Shown here piece after piece: positions 837 through 21,211 of a stretch of DNA of 64,000 nucleotides. Below the pieces are notes generated by a model, which was not told where the DNA came from, did no database searches, and was given only the letters and a program-made list of their open reading frames with translations. Both the position numbers and the translations under genes were made by a program. Position 1 is the stretch's first letter; the number at the start of each line of letters is the position of its first letter. The DNA is from a virus, in the IMG/VR virus record IMGVR_UViG_3300042888_000931, positions 1 through 64,000 of that record. One strand, 5' to 3'.

Positions 837-2951
837 GTGGCAGAAGAGAATATTGACAATACCGCCAACGGTACTGGACCCTTCAACACCAAAATCCCTG
901 GACTTGGCGATGCAGCAGATATCCAGGCAGCCCTAAGACTTTATCACTATGGATCATATACTTATGATGCAGCAGCACCTGTTCCAGGCCCTCTTCCAAT
1001 CCCATCAGTTGCAAACCACCTAAAAACCCTTGTAGATGCAGATGCCCTAGAAGTAGTAAACAGAACTGCAGCAGATGACTTAGAAATAGTAAATAGAAAT
1101 GCAGCAATAGCAGCACATAATTCAGCAACTGTAAATGTCCACGGAATACTAGATACATCTGATTTAGTAACAATATCAGATCTAAATGATGCAATAGACA
1201 ACACAACTGGATCTTATCCTAACCTTGCTGGAAGCGGTATTGAGTGGAATTCTGTTGATGAGCAATTTGACCTTGATCAATCTTTATTAAACAATAATAC
1301 TGTAGTAATTAAGACAACTGGATTTACTTTAGATGCCCTCGATGTTAATAAAACAATTTTGCTTAATGCATCATCTCCAATGAATTTAACTGTTCCGCTA
1401 AATTCTGCTGTTAATATACCAGTTGGATACAAATATAATTTAGTTGAAATCGGAACAGCAAAAACAACTTTTGTTCCATCATCTGGCGTAACAATTGGTA
1501 GCAAGAACTCACAACTATTTTTAGATGGACAATATAGCAGAGGAAATCTTGTAAAGATTGGAACAGATTCTTGGATTTTGTATGGAGATGTTTATGAAGG
1601 TGTTGCAACACCTACCCCTACACCTGTAGCACCTACCCCTGTAGCACCTACCCCTGTAGCACCTACCCCTGTAGCGCCTACCCCTGTAGCGCCTACACCT
1701 GTAGCGCCTACACCTGTAGCGCCTACACCTGTAGCACCTACCCCAACACCAGTAGCACCGACTCCAGTTGCTCCAACACCAGTAGCACCTACCCCTACTC
1801 CTGTTGCACCAACACCTGTTCCAACACCAGTCCCTACTCCTGTAACACCGTTCTTTTCTCCAACACCAACACCAACACCAACACCAACACCAGTAGCACC
1901 TTCTTCAGGAGTTTGGTACACATTCTGCGGTAATGTTTCTGCAGGATATGCGCCAGGAACTGTAGTCGGACCAGTGTTTGATCCATCACTTACATGTTCT
2001 GAAGCATTAGCACAACAAACCTCATTTGGTGAAATTGGATCTGGATGGAACTGTGCATCAGGAACATCCGCATCTTCTTCTGTACCAGCAGCAAGTTGTG
2101 GAGTAACCCCTACACCAGTAGCACCTACTCCTACACCAGTTGCACCAACACCAGTCAACCCTTGTAACCCAGACTGGAGTTTAATTCCTCAATCACAATG
2201 TGTTGAGTGTGGATTAGTCTGGTCACCTGAGTTTGGTGAATGTATTAGCGTATCACCAACCCCTGTTGCCCCTACACCTGTAGCACCTACCCCTGTAGCA
2301 CCTACCCCTGTAGCGCCTACCCCTGTAGCGCCTACACCAGTTGCTCCAAGTTGTGTTCCAGCCGATGCGTGGTCATACAACCAGTCTAAGTGTCAGTCAT
2401 GCGGATATTACTACAGCACAGAATTTGGAGAGTGCTCAACAACTCCTTGGAATACACCTACCCCAGTTGCTCCAACACCAGTTGCTCCAACTCCAGTTGC
2501 TCCAACTCCAGTAGCACCTACACCTGTACCAGTTGCTCCTACACCAGTAGCACCTGTACCTGTACCTGTTGCTCCTACTCCAACTAATATATGTGCTGGA
2601 GATATTTCCTTACTTAGCCCAAGCCAGTGTACTGCTTGTGGATACTTCTACTCAACACAATTTGGTGAGTGTATAACTACTGCACCTACACCTGTAGCAC
2701 CACCGTTCTTCCCACCATTCTTCCCACCTTACTTCCCATTCTTCCCACCATTCTTCCCACCATTCTTTGGACCTGCACCAGTTGCTCCAACTCCAGTAGC
2801 ACCTACACCAGTAGCACCTACACCAGTAGCACCTGTACCTGTAGCACCTACACCTGTAGCACCTACACCAACAGGGGGATGTACTGGATGTATTAGAAAC
2901 TATTGCTACGAGCCATGTCCAGCATGTTGTAATGGCGACTGCGGATGCTAG
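837..2951 (+). CDS. Fibre/appendage protein with PTPVA repeats, three 4-Cys modules, a PPFF repeat and an 8-Cys C-terminal tail
   Basis: GTG start after GAGGTG. Shares HNSATVNVHGILDT and LTVPLNS...WILYGD domains with the fibre at 10323. Repeats are visible in the translation. Confidence 0.75.
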   Translation: MAEENIDNTANGTGPFNTKIPGLGDAADIQAALRLYHYGSYTYDAAAPVPGPLPIPSVANHLKTLVDADALEVVNRTAADDLEIVNRNAAIAAHNSATVNVHGILDTSDLVTISDLNDAIDNTTGSYPNLAGSGIEWNSVDEQFDLDQSLLNNNTVVIKTTGFTLDALDVNKTILLNASSPMNLTVPLNSAVNIPVGYKYNLVEIGTAKTTFVPSSGVTIGSKNSQLFLDGQYSRGNLVKIGTDSWILYGDVYEGVATPTPTPVAPTPVAPTPVAPTPVAPTPVAPTPVAPTPVAPTPVAPTPTPVAPTPVAPTPVAPTPTPVAPTPVPTPVPTPVTPFFSPTPTPTPTPTPVAPSSGVWYTFCGNVSAGYAPGTVVGPVFDPSLTCSEALAQQTSFGEIGSGWNCASGTSASSSVPAASCGVTPTPVAPTPTPVAPTPVNPCNPDWSLIPQSQCVECGLVWSPEFGECISVSPTPVAPTPVAPTPVAPTPVAPTPVAPTPVAPSCVPADAWSYNQSKCQSCGYYYSTEFGECSTTPWNTPTPVAPTPVAPTPVAPTPVAPTPVPVAPTPVAPVPVPVAPTPTNICAGDISLLSPSQCTACGYFYSTQFGECITTAPTPVAPPFFPPFFPPYFPFFPPFFPPFFGPAPVAPTPVAPTPVAPTPVAPVPVAPTPVAPTPTGGCTGCIRNYCYEPCPACCNGDCGC
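1609..2870 (+). repeat. Degenerate 15-bp coding tandem repeats (CCTACCCCTGTAGCA-type, PTPVA) in several blocks
   Basis: Directly visible at about 1609-1900, 2110-2155, 2255-2348, 2455-2585 and 2770-2870. Confidence 0.95.
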
Positions 2952-2995: not shown

Positions 2996-3235
2996 ATGTC
3001 AGAAGAATTAACTCCTTGGCAAAAATACAAACAAAGTTTGGGAGAAACTAGACCCTGGGATCTTGTCAATCCTGAAACACAGTGGGCTACTTCCGAGGTA
3101 GCAGAAGAAAGATACTCTATTTGTAAGGGCTGTCCAGAACTAATAAAATTAACCAAACAGTGTAAAAAATGTGGATGTTTCATGGCAGCAAAAACAAAAC
3201 TAGAAAAGGCAGTATGCCCACTAGGTAAGTGGTAA
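2996..3235 (+). CDS. Small Cys-rich protein (DUF6171-like, CxxC-x8-CxxCGC-x12-CPxGKW)
   Basis: CKGCP...CKKCGCFM...KLEKAVCPLGKW motif. Confidence 0.65.
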   Translation: MSEELTPWQKYKQSLGETRPWDLVNPETQWATSEVAEERYSICKGCPELIKLTKQCKKCGCFMAAKTKLEKAVCPLGKW

Positions 3236-3819
3236 AAATGAAACCTCCTTATCTATTAAAAAATGTGTTACCACCAAAAGAACATAGAGAGTTACAAAAT
3301 TTGGCAATGAACTTGTGGTCAACAGACAAAACAACTTTTGATGAAGGATTTGGAAGGCATCAGTGGGCAATCTGGGATAACACACACAGAGAAAATGTAG
3401 AACCACTTAGAAAATTTCATGAGATGCTTTTGCCATTAGCAAAAGAAGAGTTTGAGTCAGAAACACTTTTGCCATCATGGTCTCTTATAAGTATTTATGA
3501 AACTGATAAGGCAAGGCTGTGGAAACATAAAGATGATAATGCTTGTACATATCATATGAACTATACTATTTTTCATAAGACACCCTGGGATTTTTATGTA
3601 GAGGGAGAAAGGTTTCAGCCAGAAGAAAACGATATGGTTATATCATATGGAAATGATCAAGAGCACTGGAGAGAAGAGTTTCCCAATCCAGAAACAAATT
3701 TAGTTGCAAATGCGTTTTTCTTTTATACAGAGCCAGATCACTGGTTTTTTACTGAAGGCCCTCAATATCTATATACCAATATTCGTGCTAAAAAAGATGA
3801 AGACTCTCCGAGTATGTAG
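3229..3819 (+). CDS. 2OG-Fe(II) oxygenase-like protein
   Basis: LWKHKDD (HxD) and distal EHWRE His; DSBH-type spacing. The start may be the ATG at 3238. Confidence 0.65.
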   Translation: MVKMKPPYLLKNVLPPKEHRELQNLAMNLWSTDKTTFDEGFGRHQWAIWDNTHRENVEPLRKFHEMLLPLAKEEFESETLLPSWSLISIYETDKARLWKHKDDNACTYHMNYTIFHKTPWDFYVEGERFQPEENDMVISYGNDQEHWREEFPNPETNLVANAFFFYTEPDHWFFTEGPQYLYTNIRAKKDEDSPSM

Positions 3820-3821
3820 TT

Positions 3822-8291: not shown

Positions 8292-9779
8292 ATGGCAACA
8301 GTAAATAAAGATTTTAAAATTAAGAGTGGACTTATCGTTGAGGGCCTACAAGGTACAATCAACAATAAGAGAATTCTTACAGAGGATGCAGGAGATCAAT
8401 ACATCCTGGACCTTATTGGTGGAGAAACACTAGTAAAGTCAGTTTCAAATGAATTTGATGTTTCAGCAGGTGGAGAACTTTCACTTGACCGTGTAGTAGT
8501 AGATGCTTATTACGATGCAGCAGGCGATGCAGCAGCAGCACAGGCTGCAGCAGAAGCAACTGCTTCAGCAGATGCAACATCTAAGGCTAACGCTGCACAG
8601 GCTGCAGCAGAGGCTACAGCATCAGCAGATGCAACATCTAAGGCTAACGCAGCCCAAGCAGCAGCAGAGGCTACAGCATCAGCAGATGCAACATCTAAGG
8701 CTAACGCAGCCCAAGCAGCAGCAGAGGCTACAGCATCAGCAGATGCAACTTCAAAGGCTAACGCTGCACAGGCTGCAGCAGAAGCAACTGCTTCAGCAGA
8801 CGCTACTTCAAAGGCTAATGCAGCAGAAGCAGCAGCAAACCTTTACACAGATGGAGCAGTTTCAGCACTTGTTGATTCAGCACCAGAACTTCTAAATACA
8901 CTTAATGAATTGGCAGAAGCACTTGGTGATTCACCAGATACAATTACAAACCTTACAACATTAGTTGGAACAAAGGCTGACACATCATATGTTGACTCAG
9001 AAATTTCTGATCTTGACACAGCAGCACAGGGTTATGCATCAGCAGCACAGGCTGCAGCAGAGGCTACAGCATCAGCAGATGCAACTTCAAAGGCTAACGC
9101 TGCACAGGCTGCAGCAGAAGCAACTGCTTCAGCAGATGCAACTTCAAAGGCTAATGCAGCAGAAGCAGCAGCAATCGCACACGCAGATGCTCTTACAACA
9201 TCTGATGTAGCAGAAGGAACAGCACAGTACTTCACAGATGCTCGTGCTAAGTCTTCAGCAGCAAGTCTTTTGACTGGTGCAACACTTACAAACATTACAA
9301 TCACAGGAACAGGTGCAGGACTTACTATTACTGCAGAAAACGGTGTAGCAGACTCTACAACATCTGATCTTGCAGAAGGTTCACGACTATACTTCACAGA
9401 CGAAAGAGCAGTAGACGCTCTTGAAGCAGTAGTTCCAAACTTCACAGCAGTTGAGGTAAACTCAGTTGCTAAGCAGGTTGCTTCAACAATGTCAGCAGCA
9501 TCTGCAGGTGCTCATGTAGGACACGCATTTGCTAAAGCAGATTACCGTTCAGCAGAGTTCCTTGTAAAGGTTGCTTACGGATCACATACTGAAATCTCAA
9601 AGGTCCTTTTGACACTTGACGCTTCAGACAACATTGCAATGACCGAATACGGAATTGTTGGAACAAATGGCACAGCGATGTCAGTTTCAGCAAATGTTGA
9701 CGGTGCAAATGTACAACTTCTAGTAACAACCACAAACAATAACTCAACAGTTACTGTTGTCGGAACACTACTTGCGTAA
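8292..9779 (+). CDS. Tail fibre protein with Ala-rich 19-aa coiled-coil repeats
   Basis: AAGGAG RBS; 7 copies of AAQAAAEATASADATSKAN; APELLNTLNELAEALGD fibre motif; TSDxAEG..YFTD repeats. Confidence 0.8.
   Translation: MATVNKDFKIKSGLIVEGLQGTINNKRILTEDAGDQYILDLIGGETLVKSVSNEFDVSAGGELSLDRVVVDAYYDAAGDAAAAQAAAEATASADATSKANAAQAAAEATASADATSKANAAQAAAEATASADATSKANAAQAAAEATASADATSKANAAQAAAEATASADATSKANAAEAAANLYTDGAVSALVDSAPELLNTLNELAEALGDSPDTITNLTTLVGTKADTSYVDSEISDLDTAAQGYASAAQAAAEATASADATSKANAAQAAAEATASADATSKANAAEAAAIAHADALTTSDVAEGTAQYFTDARAKSSAASLLTGATLTNITITGTGAGLTITAENGVADSTTSDLAEGSRLYFTDERAVDALEAVVPNFTAVEVNSVAKQVASTMSAASAGAHVGHAFAKADYRSAEFLVKVAYGSHTEISKVLLTLDASDNIAMTEYGIVGTNGTAMSVSANVDGANVQLLVTTTNNNSTVTVVGTLLA
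8533..9170 (+). repeat. 57-bp coding tandem repeats (5 + 2 copies)
   Basis: GCTGCACAGGCTGCAGCAGAGGCTACAGCATCAGCAGATGCAACATCTAAGGCTAAC-type units. Confidence 0.9.
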
Positions 9780-9814
9780 TAAAAAATAAAAATAGTTGGA
9801 AGAGGGAGCAGTAA

Positions 9815-10264
9815 ATGGCAACAGTCGATAAAGACTTCAAGGTCAAGAATGGATTAGTCGTAGCAAACGGCGGTACATTCGGAGATGCAGTAACAGTAGG
9901 AGCCCCAACTCTTAATGTCCATGCAGCAACTAAGGAGTATGTCGATAACCGATCAATGGCTGTTGGCTCAACTGCTCCTTCTTCACCAACTAATGGAACC
10001 CAGTGGTTAGACACTGGAACAAACCGAATTAATTTCTATTACAATGGAGTTTGGTATACCCAAGCAACTATTGATGATACAAATAATTTACCACAGCACA
10101 TTCACGATACCGCAATTGATGGAACTGGCTTCATAGTATCCCAGTTCTATGAAGGTGGATCATTCAACAGCCCATTGGGTGTAGGTTTGGATGCAGGTGG
10201 ACCAGACTCAACAGTTTGGACAGTTGTATTCGATGGCGGTAGTGTAGTAGATAACTTCAATTAA
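9815..10264 (+). CDS. Small fibre-associated virion protein
   Basis: N-terminus MATVDKDFKVKNGL is nearly the same as that of 8292; HAATKEYVD and APSSPTNGTQWLDT are phage fibre motifs. Confidence 0.65.
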   Translation: MATVDKDFKVKNGLVVANGGTFGDAVTVGAPTLNVHAATKEYVDNRSMAVGSTAPSSPTNGTQWLDTGTNRINFYYNGVWYTQATIDDTNNLPQHIHDTAIDGTGFIVSQFYEGGSFNSPLGVGLDAGGPDSTVWTVVFDGGSVVDNFN

Positions 10265-10322
10265 AAAATTGATGTTATAATAAGATAAGTTAATGGGCAG
10301 CCCCCATAAGGAGAATATACAA

Positions 10323-11804
10323 ATGGCAACAAGAATGCAACAGCGCAGAGGTACTGCAGCACAATGGACGGCTGCAAACCCAATTCTAGCAGCAGGTGAA
10401 ATCGGTTTTGAAACAGATACAAGTAAGTTTAAGATGGGTAACGGCTCTTCAACATGGTCTGCCCTAACATATTTTGCTAATGCAACAGAATTAGCAGCAA
10501 TCGTTGATGGAGCACCAGCAGCCCTGAACACTCTCAATGAGTTAGCAGAAGCACTAGGAGACAATCCAGCATTTTTAACAGATATTTCAAACAATCTATC
10601 AAGCCATGCTAACGATACAACACTAATCCATGGTATTGCTGACACAGCACTTCTTGCAACTACAGCAAATGTAGAAGCAGCAAATCAGGCTGCCTCTGGA
10701 GCACTCTCAGAACACGCTGCAGATACTACATCAATCCATGGTATTGCAGACACATCACTTCTTGCAACAACTGCAGATATCACAACACACAATTCAGACA
10801 CAACAGGCGTACATGGTATTGCAGATACATCACTTCTAGCAACTACAGCAAATGTACAAGCAGCAGCAGATAGCGCATCAGCAGCACTTGGAGTACACGC
10901 TTCAGACACAACAGATGTTCATGGAATCGCTGATACTTCACTTCTTGCAACAACAGCAGATATTTCAACACACAACTCAGCAACAGAAAATGTTCACGGA
11001 ATTCTAGATACAGCAGAACTAGTGACACAGTCAGACCTAGTAACCGCACTAGGAAATGCTGCAGTAGATCAGTCAACTCTTGCAGGAGTAGGTATTGACT
11101 GGAACGGAACTTCAGAAGCATTTGACATTGATTCAACTGTAGCAACAAAGACTTACGCAGACGATGCAGTGACAACACACAACTCTGACACAACAAATGT
11201 TCACGGAATTGCAGACACATCACTTCTTGCGACAACTGCAGATGTGGCAGCAGTTACAAAAACCACTCTAGGTCTTGGAAATGTTGACAATACATCAGAT
11301 GCTGACAAGCCAGTTTCAACAGCAACTGTAACAGCAATCGCAACAGCAAAGTCTGAAGCAATTGCAGAAGTAACAGCAGTTATTGATGGTGCACCAAACG
11401 CACTTAACACCCTTAACGAACTTGCTGCAGCACTTGGCGATGATGCTAACTTTGCTTCAACAATTACAACATCACTTGCAGCAAAGGTAGATTCATACAC
11501 ACCAATTACACAAAAGACAGCATCTTATACTCTATCAACGCTAGATCACAGAGATGATTTAATTGAAATGGGTTCAGCATCAGCACTTACATTAACAATT
11601 CCGCTAAATTCATCAATTGCTTACCCAGTAGGAACATCTTTAGATATTCTTCAAACTGGTGCAGGTCAAGTAACGATTGCTGGAGCAGCAGGAGTTACCG
11701 TAAATGCAACACCAGGTCTTAAGTTGAGAACTCAGTGGTCATCTGCAACTCTTTTCAAGAGAGCAGAAAACACATGGGTTGTCTACGGCGATCTAACAGC
11801 GTAA
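10323..11804 (+). CDS. Tail fibre protein with Mtd-N-type anchor domain and His-containing repeats
   Basis: AAGGAG RBS; QRRGTAAQW...GEIGFETDT.KFKMGNG N-terminus; six HxxxTxxxHGIxDT repeats; LGLGNVDNTSDADKPVS motif. Confidence 0.8.
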   Translation: MATRMQQRRGTAAQWTAANPILAAGEIGFETDTSKFKMGNGSSTWSALTYFANATELAAIVDGAPAALNTLNELAEALGDNPAFLTDISNNLSSHANDTTLIHGIADTALLATTANVEAANQAASGALSEHAADTTSIHGIADTSLLATTADITTHNSDTTGVHGIADTSLLATTANVQAAADSASAALGVHASDTTDVHGIADTSLLATTADISTHNSATENVHGILDTAELVTQSDLVTALGNAAVDQSTLAGVGIDWNGTSEAFDIDSTVATKTYADDAVTTHNSDTTNVHGIADTSLLATTADVAAVTKTTLGLGNVDNTSDADKPVSTATVTAIATAKSEAIAEVTAVIDGAPNALNTLNELAAALGDDANFASTITTSLAAKVDSYTPITQKTASYTLSTLDHRDDLIEMGSASALTLTIPLNSSIAYPVGTSLDILQTGAGQVTIAGAAGVTVNATPGLKLRTQWSSATLFKRAENTWVVYGDLTA

Positions 11805-11836: not shown

Positions 11837-12808
11837 ATGGCAGCAGGTAAGAAGATAGGTAAGAAGTCCCAAGCGTCAAATGACTTTTTGGAGCCATTAA
11901 AGCCAGTTATTGGTACTGCAACAAACGTAGGAACTAACAGACCATTTAACAATGGAGCAGCAGTTGTTACATTTTCTTTACCCGCACTTTCCCCTGCTGC
12001 CACATCTTTCACAGTAACAGCAAGCACTGGACAGACAGGAACTGGAGCATCTTCTCCAATCACTGTAGAAGGCATTGCATCAACAGCAACACCAACATTT
12101 ACAGTAAGAGCAACTAATGCAGCAGGAACATCTGCTGCTTCTGATGCATCTAATTCTGTAACAATTACAACAGTTCCAGCAACACCATCTGCACCAACTG
12201 CAACAGCGGGAGTAGATCAAGATACAGTTTCTTGGACAGCACCAGCAAACGGAGGAAGTGCAATCACTTCTTATGTTTGGGCAGCATCAGATGGCAAAAC
12301 TAATTCAACAGCATCAACATCTGTCGCTGTAGGACAAGAAGCAAACACTGCACAGACATACACTGTTCGTGCAATAAATGCTAACGGAACATCTGCAACA
12401 TCTCCAGCATCCAATAACGTAACCACAATTGCTCCATTCTTTCCCCCATTCTTCCCCCCATTCTTCCCATTCTTCCCTCCATTTTTCCCACCATTCTTCC
12501 CGTTCTTCCCACCATTTTTCCCACCATTCTTCCCATTCTTCCCACCGTTCTTCCCATTCTTCCCTTACTTCCCATTCTTCCCACCGTTCTTCCCATTCTT
12601 CCCGTTCTTCCCACCGTTCTTCCCACCTTACTTCCCATTCTTTCCACCGTTCTTCCCATTCTTCCCTTACTTCCCATTCTTCCCACCGTTCTTCCCGTTC
12701 TTCCCGTTCTTCCCACCGTTCTTCCCACCAACATTCTCATCAAGTTCAGGACCAAAGTGTACAGCCAACTATTGCTGGCAGTGCCCATGTCAACCATGCG
12801 CTTGTTAA
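11837..12808 (+). CDS. FN3-domain virion protein with about 100-aa Pro/Phe repeat and 6-Cys tail
   Basis: Two FN3-like units (TFTVRATNAAGTS; VSWTAPANGGSAITSY...YTVRAINANGTS), then (PFFP/PPFF/PYFP)n, ending CTANYCWQCPCQPCAC. Confidence 0.8.
   Translation: MAAGKKIGKKSQASNDFLEPLKPVIGTATNVGTNRPFNNGAAVVTFSLPALSPAATSFTVTASTGQTGTGASSPITVEGIASTATPTFTVRATNAAGTSAASDASNSVTITTVPATPSAPTATAGVDQDTVSWTAPANGGSAITSYVWAASDGKTNSTASTSVAVGQEANTAQTYTVRAINANGTSATSPASNNVTTIAPFFPPFFPPFFPFFPPFFPPFFPFFPPFFPPFFPFFPPFFPFFPYFPFFPPFFPFFPFFPPFFPPYFPFFPPFFPFFPYFPFFPPFFPFFPFFPPFFPPTFSSSSGPKCTANYCWQCPCQPCAC
12433..12735 (+). repeat. Pyrimidine-rich 9/12-bp coding repeat (CCATTCTTC / CCACCGTTCTTC)
   Basis: Directly visible; a shorter copy of the same repeat lies at about 2699-2768. 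Confidence 0.95.
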
Positions 12809-12816
12809 AGATAGGG

Positions 12817-12841
12817 GGCACATACAAAACTAGTATGTGCC
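12817..12841 (+). other. 9-bp inverted repeat after the FN3/PF gene (hairpin or operator)
   Basis: GGCACATAC-AAAACTA-GTATGTGCC with no U-tract, directly upstream of promoter TGCTATACT at 12856-12864. Confidence 0.55.
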
Positions 12842-12887
12842 AACTGTCAAAGATATGCTATACTACTAATACAAAAGGAGAATATAC

Positions 12888-13316
12888 ATGTACGCAATAC
12901 TTGTAAAAGATAACAATAACATCTACGATGTGCTTGGTGTGCTTAAGACTGATGAAGAAATAAGAACTAAACTTGACTCAGAGTGGGATAAGAACTTGCC
13001 TATAATCGGTATGGATGTAAATGCTCACAAAGCAACAGCAACTAGAGGTGCAACATGGAATGGCACATCTTTTGACGGAACTGCAAACGAAGGATTTTTT
13101 GCATTATCACAAGAAGAAAAAGATGCCTATAAGCAATATGCATTTTTATGTGACAACAAGATAATCTACAGACTTGCTCTAGACGCTGCTGATGAAAAGA
13201 CAGCAATGTACGATGCAGCATTTTCTAGCGAAGTAATATTGGTAAAGTGTACCTTTGTTACTGCTGGAGTAAAAGTTGTATACGACGAAGCAACCAGAGA
13301 ATTCACAGCCGCTTAA
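12888..13316 (+). CDS. Hypothetical protein (possible fibre chaperone/partner)
   Basis: AAGGAG RBS, own -10 promoter, GATWNGTSF motif. Confidence 0.6.
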   Translation: MYAILVKDNNNIYDVLGVLKTDEEIRTKLDSEWDKNLPIIGMDVNAHKATATRGATWNGTSFDGTANEGFFALSQEEKDAYKQYAFLCDNKIIYRLALDAADEKTAMYDAAFSSEVILVKCTFVTAGVKVVYDEATREFTAA

Positions 13317-13375
13317 TCTATACTGTTTTTAGTTTTTGTGATATACTATAGTCATAGCCCAAACAAAGGAACTAA

Positions 13376-14089
13376 ATGACAACTTATGATGAAAATGAAA
13401 CCCCTTGGTTTACCAAGGATAGATCAGAAACAGCCTTAAATAGATATCCATCAAAAACTATTGGAAACAATATTTTAGTTGAAAACCCAGCATTAGGAAT
13501 TAACCTATACAGAAATGTGTTTTCAAAAGAAGATTCTGAAAGATACATAAAAATATTAGAGTCTAATCTAGGTGGCAATGGAAAATACAAATGGTCAGAA
13601 GCAAAAGTAACTAACTCAGATGTGCCAATTAAAAAGGCTAGAGATGCTGTAGACTTTAGATTTAAGCAAGAAAATTTAGGTCCAAGAGACGAAGATAACT
13701 CTGAACTAATTGACCTACACGAAGAGATCTATCAAAAGTTAAAGTTCTGTGTTGACGATTATGCACGGTACTGGGGAATCAACGTAGTATATTATGAAGC
13801 ATTTAACTTTGTAAAGTATGAAGGAGAAGGAACCCACTTCAACATTCATGCCGATCACGGTCCAATGTATAATTGCACGGTCTCTGCTGTTATTTATATA
13901 AATGAAGACTACGAAGGTGGAGAGATTAGATTTCCAAGAATGGACAATTATACTCATAGTCCAAAAATAGGAGACATTGTTCTTTGCCCATCAAACTATA
14001 TTTATGAGCATGCTTCATTGCCTATGAAAGAGGGAACAAAGTATTGTGTTGTCGTAATGACAGACATTAATGAACTAGGACACAAGTAG
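13376..14089 (+). CDS. Prolyl 4-hydroxylase-like 2OG-Fe(II) oxygenase 1
   Basis: HAD...YINEDYEGGEI.F...HAS...GTKY. Confidence 0.85.
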   Translation: MTTYDENETPWFTKDRSETALNRYPSKTIGNNILVENPALGINLYRNVFSKEDSERYIKILESNLGGNGKYKWSEAKVTNSDVPIKKARDAVDFRFKQENLGPRDEDNSELIDLHEEIYQKLKFCVDDYARYWGINVVYYEAFNFVKYEGEGTHFNIHADHGPMYNCTVSAVIYINEDYEGGEIRFPRMDNYTHSPKIGDIVLCPSNYIYEHASLPMKEGTKYCVVVMTDINELGHK

Positions 14090-14856
14090 TGTCTTTAGTC
14101 GCTAAGTTCAGATCCTTTAGACCCTGGCTAGATAAAGAGAATATCTCTACACCAGTACCAACACAAAAAGAAATGCCAGATTGGTATAAAAACGCAGACA
14201 GATTTGCTAAAATGCCAAACGGAGAATACTATAAAGCACCAAAAGAAGTTTGTCCATTTCCCAAAGAAGGAACAACAGACGACTATGGAAAGATACCTAC
14301 ATGGAAGGCGTGTCCTGCAATTATGGATGCGTTTGCAACTGGTTATGTGTTTAAAACTCCTTGCGACCTAACATTTGCTAAAAATTCTCAGGGGATAATT
14401 AATGTTACAATTGATGATCCTAAATATAGAGACTTCTGTACACAAAGACCACCAATGCCACAGTTTGAACATCCAAAAGGATATTACCAGTACCACTTTG
14501 CCTGGAGTTCTCCATGGGGGCTAGAATTACCAGAAGGATATAGTGCATTATTTATGACTCCAATGAATAGGTTTGATCTGCCATTTTTAAATACTACTGG
14601 AGTTGTTGATTCTGACAAGGTACACCTTCTTGGAAGTTTTCCATTTTTTATAGCAGAGGGCTGGGAAGGAACGCTTCCTGCTGGAACCCCATACTTGCAA
14701 GTTCTTCCATTTAAAAGAGAAAACTGGGAACATGAGATAGAGATTTTAGGTCAGTCTGATATATATGGTAAAATGGTAGATAACGCAAAATTCTATCGGC
14801 AACCTGATGGAGGAGTGTACATTAAAAAAGTTTGGTCCCGTAGAGAATATAAATAG
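14089..14856 (+). CDS. Conserved phage protein, DUF6065-related
   Basis: PDWYK, TWKACPAIMD...GY, PEGYSALF..PMNR, GVVDSD, PAGTPYLQVLPFKRE. Confidence 0.6.
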   Translation: MSLVAKFRSFRPWLDKENISTPVPTQKEMPDWYKNADRFAKMPNGEYYKAPKEVCPFPKEGTTDDYGKIPTWKACPAIMDAFATGYVFKTPCDLTFAKNSQGIINVTIDDPKYRDFCTQRPPMPQFEHPKGYYQYHFAWSSPWGLELPEGYSALFMTPMNRFDLPFLNTTGVVDSDKVHLLGSFPFFIAEGWEGTLPAGTPYLQVLPFKRENWEHEIEILGQSDIYGKMVDNAKFYRQPDGGVYIKKVWSRREYK

Positions 14857-14865
14857 GAGAATAAA

Positions 14866-15549
14866 ATGCAAACATGGACAGAAAAAGAAGACCTTGGCAA
14901 TGGAATCATCTGCTATAGAAATGTAATCAAAAAAGAGTTTGACGTAATAAACAGACTTGAGTCCAACTTGGGATTAGTTGCTGACTACGGAGTGTTGTCT
15001 GCAGATGGCAAAAGATATCACTGGATGCCAGCCTATGTTGGATACCAGCAACTTATGCCAGACTATAGAGACTGCGTTGATTTTAAGTTTAAAAAAACAG
15101 ACATAGAATTAGACAAAAGCGAAGAGTCCTTAAATCTACAGGCATTGTGGCAAGACATTTATGATGCACAACATGCAGCAGTAGAAGATTATAGAAAAGA
15201 CTACAACATTATGCCACTTAAATACTGGGAGGCTTTTAACTTTATCAAGTATGGTCCAGGTCAGCACTTTATGGAGCACCATGACCACGGATATTCTTAC
15301 AACTGCACACTATCTTTAGTTGCATACGTAAATGACGACTATGATGGCGGAGAGTTATTCTTTAGACTGCAAGGACTAAACATTAAGCCACAGGCTGGAG
15401 ATTTGTACATCTTCCCATCTAATTTTATGTATCCTCATCAGGCTATGCCAGTTCACTCTGGAACAAAGTATTCTATTGTAACAATGTTAGACTATAGCAA
15501 GAAGTATCATACACCAGATATGTATGATCCAAAGTGGGACAATGAGTAA
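14866..15549 (+). CDS. P4H-like 2OG-Fe(II) oxygenase 2 (close paralog of 13376)
   Basis: EAFNFIKY, HHDHG, YVNDDYDGGEL, FPSNFMYPHQA, GTKY. Confidence 0.85.
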   Translation: MQTWTEKEDLGNGIICYRNVIKKEFDVINRLESNLGLVADYGVLSADGKRYHWMPAYVGYQQLMPDYRDCVDFKFKKTDIELDKSEESLNLQALWQDIYDAQHAAVEDYRKDYNIMPLKYWEAFNFIKYGPGQHFMEHHDHGYSYNCTLSLVAYVNDDYDGGELFFRLQGLNIKPQAGDLYIFPSNFMYPHQAMPVHSGTKYSIVTMLDYSKKYHTPDMYDPKWDNE

Positions 15550-16265
15550 TGCTAAATATATCAGTAGAAAGGATGCAAGGTAGTAATTTTAATATTAGTC
15601 CAATGTCTATTAAAAGAGATTGGATGGACCTTACATCTGAACACCATGCATATAGATGTTTTCCAGTAACACAGGCAAACGTTATTGGATGGAATCTTAC
15701 TTGCACAGAAGATATTGAGTTTGAGTGGGATGGTATAAATGATCAAACAGATCAGCATGTAACAATATTTAATCCACAAGGTTCTTATGCTGGTAGAGGT
15801 CAGTCTTCTATAAGTTTAAATACTAGTTTAGTTTTTAGAACAGATCCAGAAATTAGCATCTGGACAATTAATCCAGTAAACTATTTTAGCGAAGACTTTG
15901 AGACAATGTCTAACCTGGTTAGCACATCTTTTTATCCCAATCCACTACCACTTGCCATTAGAGCACGAAAAGCAAATCAAAGAGTAGTCATAAAAGCAGG
16001 TACTCCAATAGCAACGATTATTCCTATATCTCTAACAAACTTAAATAACACTACTATAGAGGTTGTTGAATATAGAGATGACGACAGGTCAAAGGAAAAC
16101 GCAAACAGATCCTACGGTGAAGCAGCACAAGAAGTAAACAAGTCTGGACAATGGACAGATTGGTATAGAGATGCTATTAACGAAAAGGGAGAAAGTTTAG
16201 GTTCTCACGAAGTAAAAGCATTAAAACTTTCAGTTAAAGATAACACGAATGGTGATACAATATGA
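15549..16265 (+). CDS. DUF6065-family protein
   Basis: RDWMD...HAYRCFPVTQANVIGW and KAGTPIATIIP motifs. Confidence 0.7.
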   Translation: MLNISVERMQGSNFNISPMSIKRDWMDLTSEHHAYRCFPVTQANVIGWNLTCTEDIEFEWDGINDQTDQHVTIFNPQGSYAGRGQSSISLNTSLVFRTDPEISIWTINPVNYFSEDFETMSNLVSTSFYPNPLPLAIRARKANQRVVIKAGTPIATIIPISLTNLNNTTIEVVEYRDDDRSKENANRSYGEAAQEVNKSGQWTDWYRDAINEKGESLGSHEVKALKLSVKDNTNGDTI

Positions 16266-16936
16266 ACATGGATGAATACAAAGTAGTACAAAGAAAGCCA
16301 TCAATGACGCCATCAGGCTGGTTTGGTAACAGCAAGGATATGATTGTTGAATTAGAAAATTTTATGACACAACAAGAAATAGAGTTTCTAGAAAAGGCTG
16401 CAAAGTCATTAACAATTTGGGATGTTACTGAAAGCCATGTTAATGAAAATGGAACTGTCGTATATGAAGCAAGTTATTGGAAAGACAGGGTTGCTACTAG
16501 TCCTACTCTAGATAAGAATGATCCATCGATTGCTCCAATTATTGCAGGTCTGTTTGAAAGACTAAAGCCAATAGTTGAAGAGTTCTACAAGGTAAAGGTT
16601 ATTCCTACTGGAACAACCATTGTTAGATGGCTTCCTGGTCAGTTCCAGAAGCCTCATGCAGACAAAGAACTGCATGAAGGTCCAGATGCTGGAACTCCAA
16701 ATGATTTTCCAAACTACGACCTTTCTAGTTTGTTCTATTTGAATGATGATTATGAGGGTGGAGAGTTATACTTCCCATTACAAGATGTTAAGTTTAAACC
16801 TAAAAAAGGTGCTGCTTACTTTTTTCCAGGGGATATGAATTATATTCACGGAGTAACAGAGATTAAGAGTGGTATCAGATACACCTGCCCATTCTTCTGG
16901 GAAATTACAGAGCATACGGGAGATAGAAAGCCATGA
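16262..16936 (+). CDS. P4H-like 2OG-Fe(II) oxygenase 3
   Basis: HAD, YLNDDYEGGELYF, HGV, RYT. A leaderless start at 16268 is possible. Confidence 0.85.
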   Translation: MNMDEYKVVQRKPSMTPSGWFGNSKDMIVELENFMTQQEIEFLEKAAKSLTIWDVTESHVNENGTVVYEASYWKDRVATSPTLDKNDPSIAPIIAGLFERLKPIVEEFYKVKVIPTGTTIVRWLPGQFQKPHADKELHEGPDAGTPNDFPNYDLSSLFYLNDDYEGGELYFPLQDVKFKPKKGAAYFFPGDMNYIHGVTEIKSGIRYTCPFFWEITEHTGDRKP

Positions 16937-17805
16937 CAGAGTCTCTTAATGCAGTTGAAATATATCCAAAGATTTTTGTATATAAGGGTCTCTTTAAAGA
17001 CATAAATCACACCTATAGTCTTTTAAAAGAATCAGAAGGACAGGAAGATGGACTTTTTAGTCCTTGGACGAGTTGGTCTCACTTTGGAGAATATATTAAT
17101 CCAATATTTAAAAACCATAATGATAATTTAAAAATAGAACATGTTCAAACTATAAAAACTTCAACAGAAAAACAAGAAGAACATAAGCAAGTTCTTTTAG
17201 AAATTCTTAATAATTTTATGATAGCAACAAAAGACTATATTGCAAAAAACAATGTTGACTTTGACGAAGATAGGCTTGTCCCAGGTATTAAAGATCAAAG
17301 AGGAAATGATGTTAAAGAATGGGTATATACTGGACCATCTATAGCAAGATACAAGGTAGACATTGAAGACCCACTGGCAATGACATATCATACAGACTAC
17401 ATAAGAGAGCCAATAGTAAGCCCAGGACACAAGTTTGCAATTACTGCTTTAACATACTTTAATGACGATTACCACGGTGGAGAAATTGATTTTATAGCAA
17501 ATGGAGAAGCGTATATGTATAAGCCAGAGGCTGGAGACCTTCTCGTTTTTCCATCAGGTCATCCAGAATTTCTAATGTCTGAAAAGTCTATATACCTTCA
17601 TGGAGTAATGCCTGCAGAGCATAACTCAAAGTATCTTTCAAGAATGTACTGGACAAAATACTCTACTGGTTCACCAGAGTGGCTTGAGAACGAAGAAAGA
17701 CTTGGCAAGGAAAAGTGGCAGGAAGAATGGAAAGACATTATGCAAAAGTTTAGAGATGAGAATCCTAATAGAAATAATGCTGATAAAGAAAGAAGGATAC
17801 AATGA
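16933..17805 (+). CDS. P4H-like 2OG-Fe(II) oxygenase 4
   Basis: HTD, YFNDDYHGGEI, HGV, SKY. Confidence 0.8.
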   Translation: MTESLNAVEIYPKIFVYKGLFKDINHTYSLLKESEGQEDGLFSPWTSWSHFGEYINPIFKNHNDNLKIEHVQTIKTSTEKQEEHKQVLLEILNNFMIATKDYIAKNNVDFDEDRLVPGIKDQRGNDVKEWVYTGPSIARYKVDIEDPLAMTYHTDYIREPIVSPGHKFAITALTYFNDDYHGGEIDFIANGEAYMYKPEAGDLLVFPSGHPEFLMSEKSIYLHGVMPAEHNSKYLSRMYWTKYSTGSPEWLENEERLGKEKWQEEWKDIMQKFRDENPNRNNADKERRIQ

Positions 17806-18548
17806 ATCTAGATAATAAAAAGAGAATAACTAAGGACATAGTTGTTTATGAAAACTTTATTGATGCAGAAACTGCTGCAAAACTTGTAAAGGTTTTAGAC
17901 AAGCATGTAGAAGTTGGCACAATAACCTGGATGCCTATATCTTTCTATGAGTCTTATTCCTCAGTATTGCCACAAGACAATGATGAGCATGTAGAAAACG
18001 AAGGATTGCCAAGCGACATATTTTCACAAATGAAGCAAGGAATTATTGAGGCAGTTGCAAGTGTTCACGATCTTGACCCAAAGATAATTTCTCAAATTGG
18101 ATACCATACGCAAAAGTGGGAGCCAGGAGCATATGCAAGAAAGCATTCCGATAACACTGATGAGCATGGAAAATCTGGTGCTTTTACAAGAAGCAGGTAT
18201 GCAGCATTCTTATATTTGAATGATGACTTTGAAGGTGGAATGTTGCAGTTCCCAGACCAAGACATAAGTCTTCAACCTAAAGTTGGAATGCTTGCTGCAT
18301 TTGACGGGGGATTTAACAATATGCACGAAGTAACCCTTATCACTAGTGGAGTTAGATACACCATTGGTTCATTCTGGGATGATCGTGAAGAGGATGCTTA
18401 CCCTCAAGAAGTAAGAGATGCTTGGGCTGAAGAGATGAAGGCCACTAGAGCACAACAGGAAATTGAAAGAGCAGAGTGGCAAGAGTTGCTGAAGCAAGGC
18501 TGGAAACTTGATGCTGATGGAAATAAATATAAGGCGGAGGACCTGTAA
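17802..18548 (+). CDS. P4H-like 2OG-Fe(II) oxygenase 5
   Basis: HSD, YLNDDFEGG, HEV, RYT. Confidence 0.85.
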   Translation: MNLDNKKRITKDIVVYENFIDAETAAKLVKVLDKHVEVGTITWMPISFYESYSSVLPQDNDEHVENEGLPSDIFSQMKQGIIEAVASVHDLDPKIISQIGYHTQKWEPGAYARKHSDNTDEHGKSGAFTRSRYAAFLYLNDDFEGGMLQFPDQDISLQPKVGMLAAFDGGFNNMHEVTLITSGVRYTIGSFWDDREEDAYPQEVRDAWAEEMKATRAQQEIERAEWQELLKQGWKLDADGNKYKAEDL

Positions 18549-19211
18549 GTGGAAGTTTTTTTAAAAAAAGAGTTTGATGATGCTGGATATAGTACTGAGG
18601 TTTTTCATGAACATGTTTTGTTTATAGAAGACTTTATCAGTGCTGAAGAACTTGATACTATTTTAAAAATAATTGAAACGACCCCAAACGAAGACTGGAT
18701 GATAGAGTATACTAAAAATCTTGCTAGATTCTGCATGGAAAAGTTTGGAAGAGATGATGTAGATAATCTTGTTGCAGAAGGAAAGTTTGAGATTACTCAA
18801 AATTGGGCAGACAAGAATTTAAACATTGTTACTGAGCCGATAAGCGTAACCCTTCAAGGAAGACTTGGAAGACTTCTGGCACTTGCAGACCCATCTCTAG
18901 AACTTGCTGGTTTTGGAACACTACAAAGGATGCAGGGTGGGGTTGAACTAAAGTCTCACACAGACCAGCATACAGATCCATCCATTAGATATGCTGCTAT
19001 ACTATACATTAACGATGACTACAAGGATGGAACTTTATTCTTTAAAAATAAAGAGAATTCAGACTTAAGGCCAAAGCCAGGAACATTGCTTATTTTCCCA
19101 GGTAACGAAGAATATGAGCATGGAGTAAGGCCTGTAGGAGAAGGACCCATAAGATATGTTACTGTAGGCTTTATGAAGGTAACAGGTTTTTATGAGAAAA
19201 ATAAATACTAA
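18549..19211 (+). CDS. P4H-like 2OG-Fe(II) oxygenase 6
   Basis: HTD, YINDDYKDG, HGV, RYV; GGAGG RBS before a GTG start. Confidence 0.85.
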   Translation: MEVFLKKEFDDAGYSTEVFHEHVLFIEDFISAEELDTILKIIETTPNEDWMIEYTKNLARFCMEKFGRDDVDNLVAEGKFEITQNWADKNLNIVTEPISVTLQGRLGRLLALADPSLELAGFGTLQRMQGGVELKSHTDQHTDPSIRYAAILYINDDYKDGTLFFKNKENSDLRPKPGTLLIFPGNEEYEHGVRPVGEGPIRYVTVGFMKVTGFYEKNKY

Positions 19212-19222
19212 GGAGATACAAA

Positions 19223-19852
19223 ATGGACAGAGAAATACTTGAGGAAAAGGTTTATTATTACACAAATGTAATTGAAGACCCAAAGAAACTTGTTGAGGCA
19301 ATTGAAAATGACAACAAGGATGAATGGGGAGAGTGGATGGCATGCAGCGGAGAGCACTATGTCTATGGAACAGACAAGAGCATATCTTTAACAGCAGAGT
19401 CAAACGAAAAAGATAAGTATATTTATAACACTCTACAAAAGGCATTTGATGATGTAGCAAGAGACTACGCTGCAGCACAAGGTATTACAGAAGAGCCAAA
19501 ACTGTTTCCAATGTATCCTATCAAGAAGTACCAGCCTGGAACGTTTATGGGTGCACACTTTGATCAGCAAGAAGGAGACGAAAGACTAAAGGTTTCTTTT
19601 GTTATGTACCTTAATGATGATTACGAAGGCGGAGAAATATCTTTCACTATTGCTTCTCCAGACGGAGTTTTACAGAATCCAAGCCCAGAAGCAGATTTTG
19701 CAGAAGCACAGCATAATGGAAATTATTCATTTGCAGTAAAGCCAAAGGCTGGAAGCATCATTGTGTTCCCACCATCACCACCATACCATCACACTGCACA
19801 CCTAGTTAAAAGCGGTGAAAAGATCATGGTCCCACAACACTGGATTCACTAG
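19223..19852 (+). CDS. P4H-like 2OG-Fe(II) oxygenase 7
   Basis: HFD, YLNDDYEGGEI, HTA, GEK. Confidence 0.85.
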   Translation: MDREILEEKVYYYTNVIEDPKKLVEAIENDNKDEWGEWMACSGEHYVYGTDKSISLTAESNEKDKYIYNTLQKAFDDVARDYAAAQGITEEPKLFPMYPIKKYQPGTFMGAHFDQQEGDERLKVSFVMYLNDDYEGGEISFTIASPDGVLQNPSPEADFAEAQHNGNYSFAVKPKAGSIIVFPPSPPYHHTAHLVKSGEKIMVPQHWIH

Positions 19853-19853
19853 T

Positions 19854-20447
19854 ATGACCCAGGGCTATCAAAATTTTAGCGAACAAGAACAGTTTGTTTT
19901 AAATTTACTTGATAACAAAAAAGAAGGATACTATGTAGAACTTGGTGCTGCCCATTCAAAAAATGGAAGCAATACTTACAGACTTGAAAATGAGTTTGAC
20001 TGGAAGGGTGTTTCTTTTGAAATTGTTCCAGAACTACACAAAGAAGTTTCTGAGAATAGGAAAAACCCTTGTATCCTTGGGGATGCTACAAAGTTTGACT
20101 ATATCAAATACTTTGAAGAAAACAACTTTCCAAACCAGATAGATTACTTGCAGGTAGATATTGATGCTGGATACCAAACAGATGGTAGACCTGCTGGTAA
20201 CCACTATACAACTCTACATGGTTTGATTGCTGTACCTCTAAATAAGTATAGATTTACAGTTATAACTTTTGAGCACGATTCAAACATGTACTGGAGAAAT
20301 ACGGCAATGCGTGATGCACAAAGAGAAATTCTTGACTCGTTGGGCTACTCTCTAGTTGTTAGACAAATCCATGAAGACTGGTGGGTAGACCCAACAGCAA
20401 TTGGACTAGAAAAATATAGAGAGTACTTTAAATGGGACACCCTATAA
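19854..20447 (+). CDS. FkbM-like SAM-dependent methyltransferase
   Basis: YYVELGA, NGSNT..LE, WKGVSFE, IDYLQVDID, ITFEH, EDWWV. Confidence 0.75.
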   Translation: MTQGYQNFSEQEQFVLNLLDNKKEGYYVELGAAHSKNGSNTYRLENEFDWKGVSFEIVPELHKEVSENRKNPCILGDATKFDYIKYFEENNFPNQIDYLQVDIDAGYQTDGRPAGNHYTTLHGLIAVPLNKYRFTVITFEHDSNMYWRNTAMRDAQREILDSLGYSLVVRQIHEDWWVDPTAIGLEKYREYFKWDTL

Positions 20448-21112
20448 ACAATAAGACAGCAATTGTTACAGGAGCCAGCAAAGGTGTTGGATACGCAACA
20501 GTAAAACTTTTATCTGAAAATGGATATAAAGTTATTGCTGTTTCAAGAGACCTCTCTAAAGTTTCAGAACTTGTTTCTGAGAATGTTGAAATGTATGAAT
20601 TAGACATTACAAATTCAGAAGAAATTAAACGCTTTCACGAACACTATAAAGACATAACTTTAGATCTTTTAGTAAACAATGCTGGTGGAGGCTCAGGGCC
20701 AACATATATAATTAATGAGACTATGGACAACTTTAGAAGAGCGTATGATATAAATGTTTCTGGTCCAATGTATCTTTCCCAACTTTTTGTTCCATCTATG
20801 AAAAAGTCAGAGTCTGCAACAATCATTTTCGTTAGTTCTATTGGTGGAAAATATCCATACAGATCTGGTGGAAATTACACAAACGCTAAAAGAGGAATGA
20901 TGGCACTTGTAGACACCATGAGACTAGAGTTCCCAGAGTACGGAATTAAGGTTACTGAAATTTGTCCAGGTACAATTGACACACAAATAGAAAAAAGAGA
21001 AATTGCCATTACTGCTGAAGACATGGCTGAGTCTATAAGATGGGTAGCAAGTTTGCCAAAGCATGTCAACATAAATCATATAGAGATAAATCATATACTT
21101 AGTGGTAAATAA
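20432..21112 (+). CDS. Short-chain dehydrogenase/reductase
   Basis: TGASKGVG, NNAG, catalytic YTNAK, ICPG. Confidence 0.9.
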   Translation: MGHPINNKTAIVTGASKGVGYATVKLLSENGYKVIAVSRDLSKVSELVSENVEMYELDITNSEEIKRFHEHYKDITLDLLVNNAGGGSGPTYIINETMDNFRRAYDINVSGPMYLSQLFVPSMKKSESATIIFVSSIGGKYPYRSGGNYTNAKRGMMALVDTMRLEFPEYGIKVTEICPGTIDTQIEKREIAITAEDMAESIRWVASLPKHVNINHIEINHILSGK

Positions 21113-21117
21113 TTACT

Positions 21118-21157
21118 AACTCTCAACCTCTTATTTAGGGGAGAGTTTTGCTTTTTT
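21118..21157 (+). terminator. Intrinsic terminator closing the oxygenase cassette
   Basis: AACTCTC...GAGAGTT stem followed by TTGCTTTTTT. Confidence 0.65.
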
Positions 21158-21211
21158 GAAAACTCTGCTATACTTAACACTTAATCCGTTTTTGAAAGGA
21201 CGATACATATT

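Follow-up and report, generated by a model that had tools for sequence, protein, structure and literature searches.

Tandem arrays of 2-oxoglutarate (2OG)- and Fe(II)-dependent oxygenases have been described in phages since 2010, and our search of the literature found no substrate for them. The closest described case is the Synechococcus phage Syn9, in which Iyer, Abhiman, de Souza and Aravind 2010 (PMC2938197) reported, from an in silico analysis, 10 tandem dioxygenases accompanied by a pair of tryptophan halogenases and by a protein of the dUTPase fold in which a Cys is conserved. The same work describes bacterial operons in which genes for collagen-like or tail-collar proteins stand beside those for dioxygenases and sulfotransferases, and it proposes the neighboring repeat or fiber-like protein as the substrate. 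Phage 2OG oxygenases are commonly classed as auxiliary metabolic genes (AMGs) (PMC2938197, PMC3037559, PMC10611076). Here we describe a locus in the first 64 kb of a linear 90,067-bp IMG/VR virus record (IMGVR_UViG_3300042888_000931; estimated completeness 82%); this whole stretch of 64,000 nucleotides is referred to as the window. In it, a gene for a protein with a long polymer of proline and phenylalanine (the carrier) is followed by an island encoding seven oxygenases (ox1 to ox7) and two DUF6065-like proteins (d255 and the DUF6065 protein). From the comparative evidence presented below, we think, with moderate confidence, that the island is a protein-tailoring cassette acting by prolyl hydroxylation of the Pro-Phe polymer. 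The coordinates of all features are given in Table 1.

Co-occurrence of the Pro-Phe polymer and the oxygenase array

An earlier note on this DNA, made from the sequence alone, had described a stretch of about 100 residues of Pro, Phe and Tyr followed by a tail with six Cys, and the open reading frame (ORF) of the carrier has this composition. No residues besides Phe, Pro and Tyr are present in the polymer, which consists of 28 units (13 PFF, 12 PPFF, 2 PYF and 1 PPYF). Four codons are used for Pro and two for Phe; hence, the DNA variation among repeat units is synonymous in the Pro-Phe frame only, and since the two other frames would vary, this points to the Pro-Phe frame as the one under selection. 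Tandem Repeats Finder revealed periods of 9, 12, 21, 33 and 102 nt in the polymer DNA. The length of the polymer varies, as near-identical phages (L020-L023) encode carriers of 337, 348 and 371 aa with the same tail. Metatranscriptome contigs differ within the polymer DNA, with 3 bases inserted at 12499 and a slip of 42 bases near 12700.

To examine this arrangement, we analyzed 102 related viral loci taken from the best 80 IMG/VR contigs per query, and kept 81 that had at least 5 kb downstream or in which the ribonucleotide reductase (RNR) gene was reached; the 21 loci with less than 5 kb downstream and no RNR were left out. The gene order, three fiber genes, carrier, island and RNR, is conserved; RNR is 94-99% identical, whereas the C-terminal half of the carrier and the island vary. 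We observed that all 52 loci whose repeat is of the P[FY]FP type contain 4-10 oxygenases in the segment from the carrier gene to RNR. In contrast, 27 of the 29 loci with other repeats have no oxygenases of the PF13640-type array, and the remaining two have two. When unique proteins were counted, the array was found with 43/43 of the P[FY]FP type and 0/21 of the other types. For the reverse test, loci were selected by DUF6065 alone, and 48 of 79 were kept because the sequence 5′ of their first oxygenase extended over 2.5 kb or more (31 were left out). A P[FY]FP carrier was located just upstream in 46 of the 48, and the other two corresponded to a PHFPP variant and a frameshifted repeat. In L269:3393-4139, the Pro-Phe frame is lost behind the third repeat unit and the sequence continues in a Leu/Val/Pro frame, which represents an assembly error or a real frameshift. 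The co-occurrence and adjacency of PF-repeat genes and arrays of prolyl 4-hydroxylase (P4H)-like and DUF6065 genes, which the earlier note had set as a test beforehand, was therefore borne out in both directions.

Other repeats are accompanied by other enzymes. All 19 FGFxP loci carry 1-3 paralogues of another, Oxy_5-like oxygenase family, whose members are unannotated proteins of about 215 aa with an invariant HxH...H...R (language model Atlas, 0.96 to PF13759). A Sulfotransfer_2 gene was found in the L090-type FGFxP islands (35.1 bits in L090) and in the YxFxP locus L054 (22.6 bits). The stretches in which these oxygenase paralogues or the sulfotransferase gene were noted are L072:8402-10300, L081:7374-9280, L090:8529-10576, L096:11208-12499 and L054:11707-12504. 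The YxFxP (7 loci) and FGAFGA (3 loci) groups showed neither oxygenase family. Across 64 unique proteins, no mismatch between repeat type and enzyme set was detected. In a tree built from the FN3 part, at least 6 changes were counted for repeat type and at least 6 for enzyme set. The tail module, which is Cys-rich, Hint-like or short, shows at least 21 changes and occurs together with every enzyme state. As this module lies between the repeat and the island on the DNA, its reshuffling indicates that recombination does come between the two, and still they stay paired.

Among 27 distinct complete islands, ox1, d255, ox2, DUF6065, ox3 and ox5 were present in every one, ox6 and ox7 in 25, and ox4 in 22. 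A DNA-pattern scan for sequences coding for PFFPPFFPFFP detected at least 120 stretches, and a survey of carriers beyond the FN3 lineage (ORFs of at least 150 aa) showed that, besides the proteins with two FN3 domains, the polymer occurs in tandem pairs of single-FN3 proteins, in proteins with no FN3, in Hint-ended forms, and as blocks in proteins of 959 and 1561 aa. The ox1-d255-ox2-DUF6065-ox3 core (40-90% identity) was found right after carriers in L130, L139, L158, L149, L153, L203, L164, L133 and L215. The presence of one core cassette behind carriers of differing architecture indicates that the polymer, and not the architecture of the carrier, is the conserved element. Five carriers had no array in the stretch fetched; their whole contigs hold 6, 13, 0, 7 and 7 PF13640 matches, the zero corresponding to a contig that is 26% complete. 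Five polymer-free contigs hold 1, 0, 2, 5 and 2 scattered PF13640 matches.

The scattered matches in polymer-free phages would also be in line with a different explanation, namely that polymer and array are inherited together without being substrate and enzymes. The array would then be auxiliary or directed to the host (acting, for example, on EF-Tu or ribosomal proteins, or consuming 2OG), and it would track the repeat because both follow the same host lineage within one hypervariable segment. The variability of the carrier-to-RNR segment in backbones with a nearly identical RNR speaks for this possibility, as does the best fold match of ox2, a Pseudomonas PPHD-EF-Tu complex (see below); the published reading of such genes is usually AMG, 2OG or DNA repair (PMC3037559, PMC10611076), and an independent-pairs test on our tree was underpowered. 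Although it is the main alternative, we consider this explanation rather unlikely, given that the pairing shows no mismatch in spite of the shuffling of the tail module, that the cassette occurs behind carriers of quite different architecture and neighborhood, and that both exceptions in the reverse test are altered carriers.

Relationship of the oxygenases to peptidyl-prolyl hydroxylases

The earlier note had claimed seven 2OG-Fe(II) oxygenases with intact motifs, and we found that all of them score above the PF13640 cut-off (34.2-55.7 bits vs 27) and retain HxD, the distal His, and Y-x-N-x-D-x3-G, with a K/R nine to ten residues past the distal His. Their pairwise identity is 23-41%, and H158, D160 and H212 are invariant in the alignment. 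The family profile matched the P4H of Bacillus anthracis (6e-12), prolyl 3-hydroxylase 1 (2e-9), and the P4H of the chlorovirus PBCV-1 (structure 5c5t, 3.7e-6), as well as PiuC-type hydroxylases and PHD2; a Tet-like dioxygenase was a weaker match (2.3e-5). One of the seven, ox2, was modeled (AlphaFold, pLDDT 91.9). The best 50 Foldseek matches of this model were peptidyl-prolyl hydroxylases and one putative uncharacterized oxygenase (3dkq); the first one was the PPHD-EF-Tu complex, and 5c5t was again among them (TM-score on target 0.72). The double-stranded beta-helix of the model is closest to those of solved prolyl hydroxylases. As judged from profiles and from this model, the oxygenases are thus nearest to peptidyl-prolyl hydroxylases, the kinship already proposed in the earlier note, and this is their predicted catalytic role. 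A predicted complex of ox2 with residues 197-240 of the carrier scored 0.00 against a mark of 0.32, without controls, and speaks neither for nor against binding.

DUF6065-like partners and the dUTPase fold

Both DUF6065-like proteins match phrog_7084, as expected from their earlier description, and PF19541 is matched by the DUF6065 protein only; d255 showed no Pfam match at E ≤ 0.01. The AF2 model of d255 (pLDDT 87) displays a dUTPase-like beta barrel. With Foldseek, this model matched dUTPases and dCTP deaminases (probability 0.98-1.0, E 3e-3 to 5e-2), and with VIA, the best 23 matches all belonged to the dUTPase or dCTP deaminase superfamily (Z 9.6-5.2), the next match having a Z of 3.9. The DUF6065 protein shares phrog_7084 with d255 and is a putative protein of this fold. 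These proteins, which had been grouped with the oxygenases in a single array, are not oxygenase-like. Cys75 is invariant in the d255 alignment. Searched against PDB sequences, a profile of the d255 family (alignment A3) gave no dUTPase match at E ≤ 1; by eye, the GVVDSD-like and AGTP..Q motifs of d255 resemble dUTPase motifs.

Distant d255 homologues (28-32% identity) were found in haloarchaeal tailed viruses, in Halophage HF1 (L109, 48119-49003) and about 49 other records. In HF1, the d255-like gene is two genes away from the RNR gene, and in polymer-free lake phages whose loci lack the array, a distant d255 paralogue is located directly 5′ of RNR. For DUF6065, the best 120 of 1448 matches (E ≤ 1e-5) were only close phage relatives, all with at least 75% identity, and hence gave no cellular context. 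DUF6065 was present in one of 14 control genomes, that of Caulobacter vibrioides, which also has PF13640.

These observations raise the question of whether the cassette could act on nucleotides or DNA, given that dUTPase-fold proteins bind nucleotides, oxygenases hydroxylate bases, and RNR is a neighbor. The similarity of the d255 model to dUTPases, the distant d255-like genes near RNR in array-free loci and in HF1, and the Tet-like dioxygenase among the weaker profile matches would all agree with such a role, and no canonical dUTPase (PF00692) was found in the whole 90-kb record at E ≤ 0.01. Against it, the nearest relatives of the oxygenases in sequence and fold are protein prolyl hydroxylases and not AlkB, TET or JBP; in L139, L153 and L137, the cassette is flanked by fiber genes instead of RNR, and the link to the polymer would be left unexplained. 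We regard an action on nucleotides as very improbable.

Accessory genes

The remaining genes of the island are accessory. The short-chain dehydrogenase/reductase (SDR) had been correctly recognized (PF00106), and the gene described earlier as encoding an FkbM-like methyltransferase is a candidate: it showed no match in Pfam (E ≤ 0.01), NCBIfam or PHROG, including PF05050, and the assignment comes from a language-model lead (Atlas, 0.97) to a cluster with PF05050 in 52% of its members. The proposal that methylation and redox reactions are steps of the pathway was not supported, since the methyltransferase-like gene is found in 6/27 islands and the SDR in 14/27, vs 27/27 for the core genes. The comparison with an assembly line for ribosomally synthesized and post-translationally modified peptides was not sustained either; the carriers are domain proteins of 164-1561 aa instead of leader/core precursors, and the matches of the island proteins included no protease or recognition-element family.

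The SDR and the possible methyltransferase at the end of the island could also be read as signs of a cassette for producing or altering a small molecule or a non-ribosomal peptide, with the carrier merely adjacent. This is how the Syn9 array, with its two tryptophan halogenases and dUTPase-fold Cys protein, has been interpreted, as a route to a secondary metabolite (PMC2938197). Nevertheless, both genes are optional, no synthetase, halogenase or transporter family was found among the Pfam matches of the island proteins, and the strict two-way link to the polymer is not accounted for; we consider a small-molecule product improbable.

Carrier proteins

The label of two FN3 domains given to the carrier holds for its homologues, which score 27.6-36.5 bits on fn3 (PF00041, cut-off 25; precomputed for most of them), but in the carrier itself the scores are below the cut-off (fn3, 22 bits vs 25; PKD_6, 20.7 vs 25). 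Among 8000 candidates scored, 1168 homologues of the carrier were obtained at E ≤ 0.001. In many of them, a domain of about 170 aa, with a Cys right after the repeat and HN(K/S) at the end, occupies the place of the Cys-rich tail (P0096, P0114, P0092, P0082 and P0030; L044:10001-11266; L031, L039, L045 and L053). The Hint calls for the C-terminal domains of the homologues were below the Pfam cut-offs (Hint_2, 19.4 and 20.5 bits vs 28.4; Intein_splicing, 18 vs 35.8). Such a Hint/intein-like domain suggests a possible self-cleavage or ligation at the C-terminus of the polymer. Metatranscriptome contigs (4 runs, 3 studies) cover parts of the carrier gene and several oxygenases; this was not used as evidence of expression because RNA libraries can contain DNA and contigs give no level, and no weight is given to the stretches that the contigs leave uncovered.

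The second carrier, a fiber-like protein, contains long (PTPVA)n linkers (about 40% of the protein), a short PPFF/PFF block, three similar Cys-containing mini-domains (…C.(A/S)CG(Y/L).(Y/W)S..FGEC…), and an NYC Cys-rich tail like that of the first carrier. The PFF block is kept in the homologues of L020 and L022. PT-rich linkers occur in array-free phages too (L085), so the presence of the array does not follow that of the linkers. In L039, a phage without the polymer, the counterpart of the second carrier has a YSFTP-type repeat and a Hint-like end, as does the FN3 protein of this phage; the shared repeat type and end indicate that the two fiber loci change in concert. The position of the carrier gene, together with the homology of the second carrier to tail-protein PHROGs, suggests that the carrier may be displayed on the virion.

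Proposed role of the island

Collagen, extensin and the hydroxyproline/DOPA repeats of mussel foot proteins are repetitive Pro-rich structural polymers that are made functional by P4H-type enzymes. The analysis above shows the gene content, the intactness of the catalytic residues, the fold class and a genomic coupling that holds in both directions; we infer that the polymer is the substrate of the cassette, that proline is the modified residue and that the carrier is part of the virion. The unit that is conserved comprises the Pro-aromatic polymer, the P4H-type oxygenases and the two dUTPase-fold proteins. The cassette (13376-19852) would target the (PFF/PPFF)n polymer of the first carrier and the short block of the second one, and several non-redundant oxygenases of the P4H/PHD type would convert the prolines to 4- and/or 3-hydroxyproline, with different paralogues reading different sequence contexts in the polymer. 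The hydroxylation of Phe that the earlier note had also envisaged is not supported. As in the structural proteins just named, hydroxylation could lend solubility and stiffness to a polyproline-like stalk that would otherwise be uncharged and very hydrophobic. The dUTPase-fold, DUF6065-like proteins would be obligatory partners, for which a scaffold or chaperone role is a guess, and the SDR, the methyltransferase-like gene and the 142-aa protein would be optional.

Several points weigh against this explanation. The entire case is comparative. The loci are related and the genes are neighbors, so that repeat type and island content could be linked through some common factor, for instance host lineage; in the independent-pairs sign test, only 2 pairs were available on well-supported branches and 4 on the best tree, numbers with which significance is unreachable. 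The hairpin between the carrier gene and the island, together with the new promoter-like motifs that follow it, indicates that the island is probably its own transcription unit; the carrier gene and the island are thus probably on separate transcripts. To our knowledge, a Phe-flanked proline is not the context of any P4H, and we know of no prolyl-hydroxylation system in which dUTPase-fold proteins have a place. In Syn9, the proteins gp32-gp40 contain no Pro-aromatic polymer (the best 30-residue window has 0.37 Pro plus aromatic residues), and the array of this phage has been proposed to act in secondary-metabolite synthesis and not in the modification of virion proteins (PMC2938197). Additionally, for PBCV-1, the source of the one characterized viral P4H, the reference list of a review records that hydroxyproline was not detected in the virus particles (PMC7019647).

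A wider generalization can be proposed, although we hold it to be doubtful. Lake actinophage-like viruses may build their fibers from swappable aromatic polymers (PFF/PPFF, FGFxP, YxFxP and FGAFGA), each with a cognate enzyme cassette: P4H-type enzymes with dUTPase-fold partners for Pro-Phe, and Oxy_5-type enzymes, sometimes with a sulfotransferase, for FGFxP. Many phage genes annotated as 2OG oxygenase AMGs might then encode tailoring enzymes of virion proteins, and the dUTPase fold would have been recruited to protein modification.

Source phage, neighboring genes and transcription signals

Genes for portal, protease, major head and tail proteins are present in the window. The portal shows 46-48% identity to those of Streptomyces phages, and the host is probably a member of the Actinobacteria. 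The nearest relative of the class II RNR is that of the Actinomycetia phage DSL-LC01 (62% identity), although this phage does not have the carrier-island arrangement. The phage is recurrent in lakes, and 15 lake or freshwater DNA runs contain at least 0.71 of the sampled words from 11837-16265. In a collection of cultured phages, the 9.3-kb region gave no match by megablast, and neither the carrier nor the DUF6065 protein gave one by tblastn (1e-5), a search in which the low-complexity filter of BLAST may mask the repeat.

Three fiber-like genes are always located 5′ of the carrier gene. The first of them (8292-9779) contains a 57-nt tandem repeat at 8535-8837 (5.3 copies) and at 9042-9173 (2.3 copies) that encodes an Ala-rich 19-residue unit; the third (10293-11804) contains a 183-nt repeat and an Mtd_N domain (E 9.1e-14). 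Farther upstream, a 196-aa protein (3229-3819) matches phrog_2954, labeled ‘ferrochelatase’, and its homologues in related loci show 27-40% identity to ox2. It is adjoined, at 3822-5884, by a gene for an unknown 344-aa protein and a nucleotide-sugar epimerase gene (phrog_540, 4.7e-80). The segment from 3229 to 5884 may represent a further modification module, and it occurs in polymer-free phages too. The tail region includes one ORF of 3154 aa (36575-46039), presumably a tape measure or a fused tail protein.

A scan for consensus promoters and terminators was no better than shuffles (35 promoter-like sites vs 42 expected, and 8 terminator-like sites vs 10.5). The motif TGNTATACT was found 10 times in the window vs 2.39 expected, and none of 100 shuffles reached 10. 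Its sites (12856, 13339, 18995, 21166, 26996, 35483, 54177, 54279 and 63045 on the + strand, and 6517 on the − strand) are mostly just 5′ of gene starts, which suggests that this extended −10-like sequence is probably the promoter type of the phage. A terminator at 21118 had been proposed to close the island; the hairpin and its T run are plausible, but the hairpin is weak and was missed by the consensus scan.

Table 1. Features of the carrier locus and its surroundings, with positions in the window
Feature	Position	Strand	Remarks
Second carrier, 704-aa fiber-like protein	837..2951	+	PHROG matches to minor tail and virion structural families, E ~1e-12, residues 142-252
Three fiber-like genes 5′ of the carrier gene (8292-9779, 9815-10264, 10293-11804)	8292..11804	+	Order fib495-fib149-fib503-carrier conserved in related loci
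Carrier gene: two FN3-like domains, Pro-Phe polymer, Cys-rich tail	11837..12808	+	323 aa; AGGAG ribosome-binding site
(PFF/PPFF)n polymer, residues 200-298, proposed substrate	12434..12730	+	99 residues: 53 F, 43 P, 3 Y
C-terminal tail, 25 residues, 6 Cys	12731..12805	+	Exchanged for Hint-like domains or short tails in homologues
Strong hairpin between carrier gene and island	12810..12848	+	dG −23.2 kcal/mol, z −9.25; 0/200 shuffles as stable; no T run on + strand
Extended −10-like motif TGCTATACT ahead of island	12856..12864	+	Further copies at 13339-13347 and 21166-21174 (ahead of RNR)
142-aa protein, family unknown, accessory	12888..13316	+	No Pfam, NCBIfam or PHROG match; in 12/27 islands
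Oxygenase 1 (P4H-like), core	13376..14089	+	PF13640 40.6 bits; in 27/27 islands
d255, DUF6065-like, core	14089..14856	+	phrog_7084 1.9e-34; start overlaps oxygenase 1 stop; in 27/27 islands
Oxygenase 2 (P4H-like), core	14866..15549	+	PF13640 55.7 bits; the one modeled
DUF6065 protein, core	15549..16265	+	PF19541 108.3 bits, phrog_7084 8.1e-10; start overlaps oxygenase 2 stop; in 27/27 islands
Oxygenases 3-7	16262-16936, 16933-17805, 17802-18548, 18549-19211, 19223-19852	+	All above PF13640 cut-off
Candidate FkbM-type methyltransferase, accessory	19815..20447	+	Start perhaps 19854; in 6/27 islands
SDR, accessory	20432..21112	+	PF00106 148.8 bits vs cut-off 26.6; in 14/27 islands
Hairpin and T run closing the island	21118..21158	+	dG −10.4 kcal/mol, z −1.95; plausible but weak
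RNR gene, downstream of island	21212-23245		RNR Pfam matches

Comparison with known systems

The island resembles the Syn9 region (gp41-gp54) in having many divergent tandem 2OG-Fe(II) dioxygenases together with a conserved-Cys dUTPase-fold protein (PMC2938197). In both phages the array lies close to fiber genes; in Syn9 (L307, 21068-43144), it comes directly after tail-fiber and fiber-assembly genes, and motifs like those of d255 can be recognized by eye in gp43. The Syn9 array differs in that it includes tryptophan halogenases and a JmjC/MINA member (PMC2938197), and no such family was found among the Pfam matches of the 13 island proteins.

As in the phage described here, a virus-encoded P4H-type enzyme and virus-encoded Pro-rich repeats are both present in PBCV-1 (Eriksson et al. 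1999, listed in PMC7019647). That case involves one enzyme of a eukaryotic virus, whereas here 5-11 paralogues and dUTPase-fold partners are encoded by phages. The PBCV-1 repeats are reportedly not Phe-rich. The bacterial operons with collagen-like proteins have sulfotransferases in common with the polymer-variant islands (L090 and L054). In those operons, the enzymes belong to the beta-hydroxylase and PhyH families, the genomes are cellular, and the repeats are glycine-rich and collagen-like, in contrast to the Pro-Phe polymers (PMC2938197). With respect to collagen and extensin themselves, the polymer differs by its lack of a Gly-X-Y or Ser-Pro4 context, by an aromatic content above 50%, and by its phage setting.

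Accordingly, the tandem array with a dUTPase-fold protein, and dioxygenases acting on co-encoded fiber-like proteins in bacteria, are already known (PMC2938197). Among the papers listed, our literature search returned nothing relevant on native phage Pro-Phe polymers or on hydroxyproline in phage virions; many of those listed dealt with PR-39-type peptides or PfFPPS. Three points go beyond the searchable literature: the polymer of Pro and Phe itself, the fact that it is strictly coupled to the array in both directions, and the finding that repeats of a different chemistry are matched by different enzyme families. The arrays described here have a concrete, genetically coupled candidate substrate. 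If the cassette does hydroxylate the polymer, this would be the first known case, within the literature searched, of a phage tailoring its own fiber proteins by hydroxylation, and the hydroxylated Pro-Phe polymer would be a new protein material. It would also provide a function for DUF6065 and alter the way in which viral ecology counts such genes.

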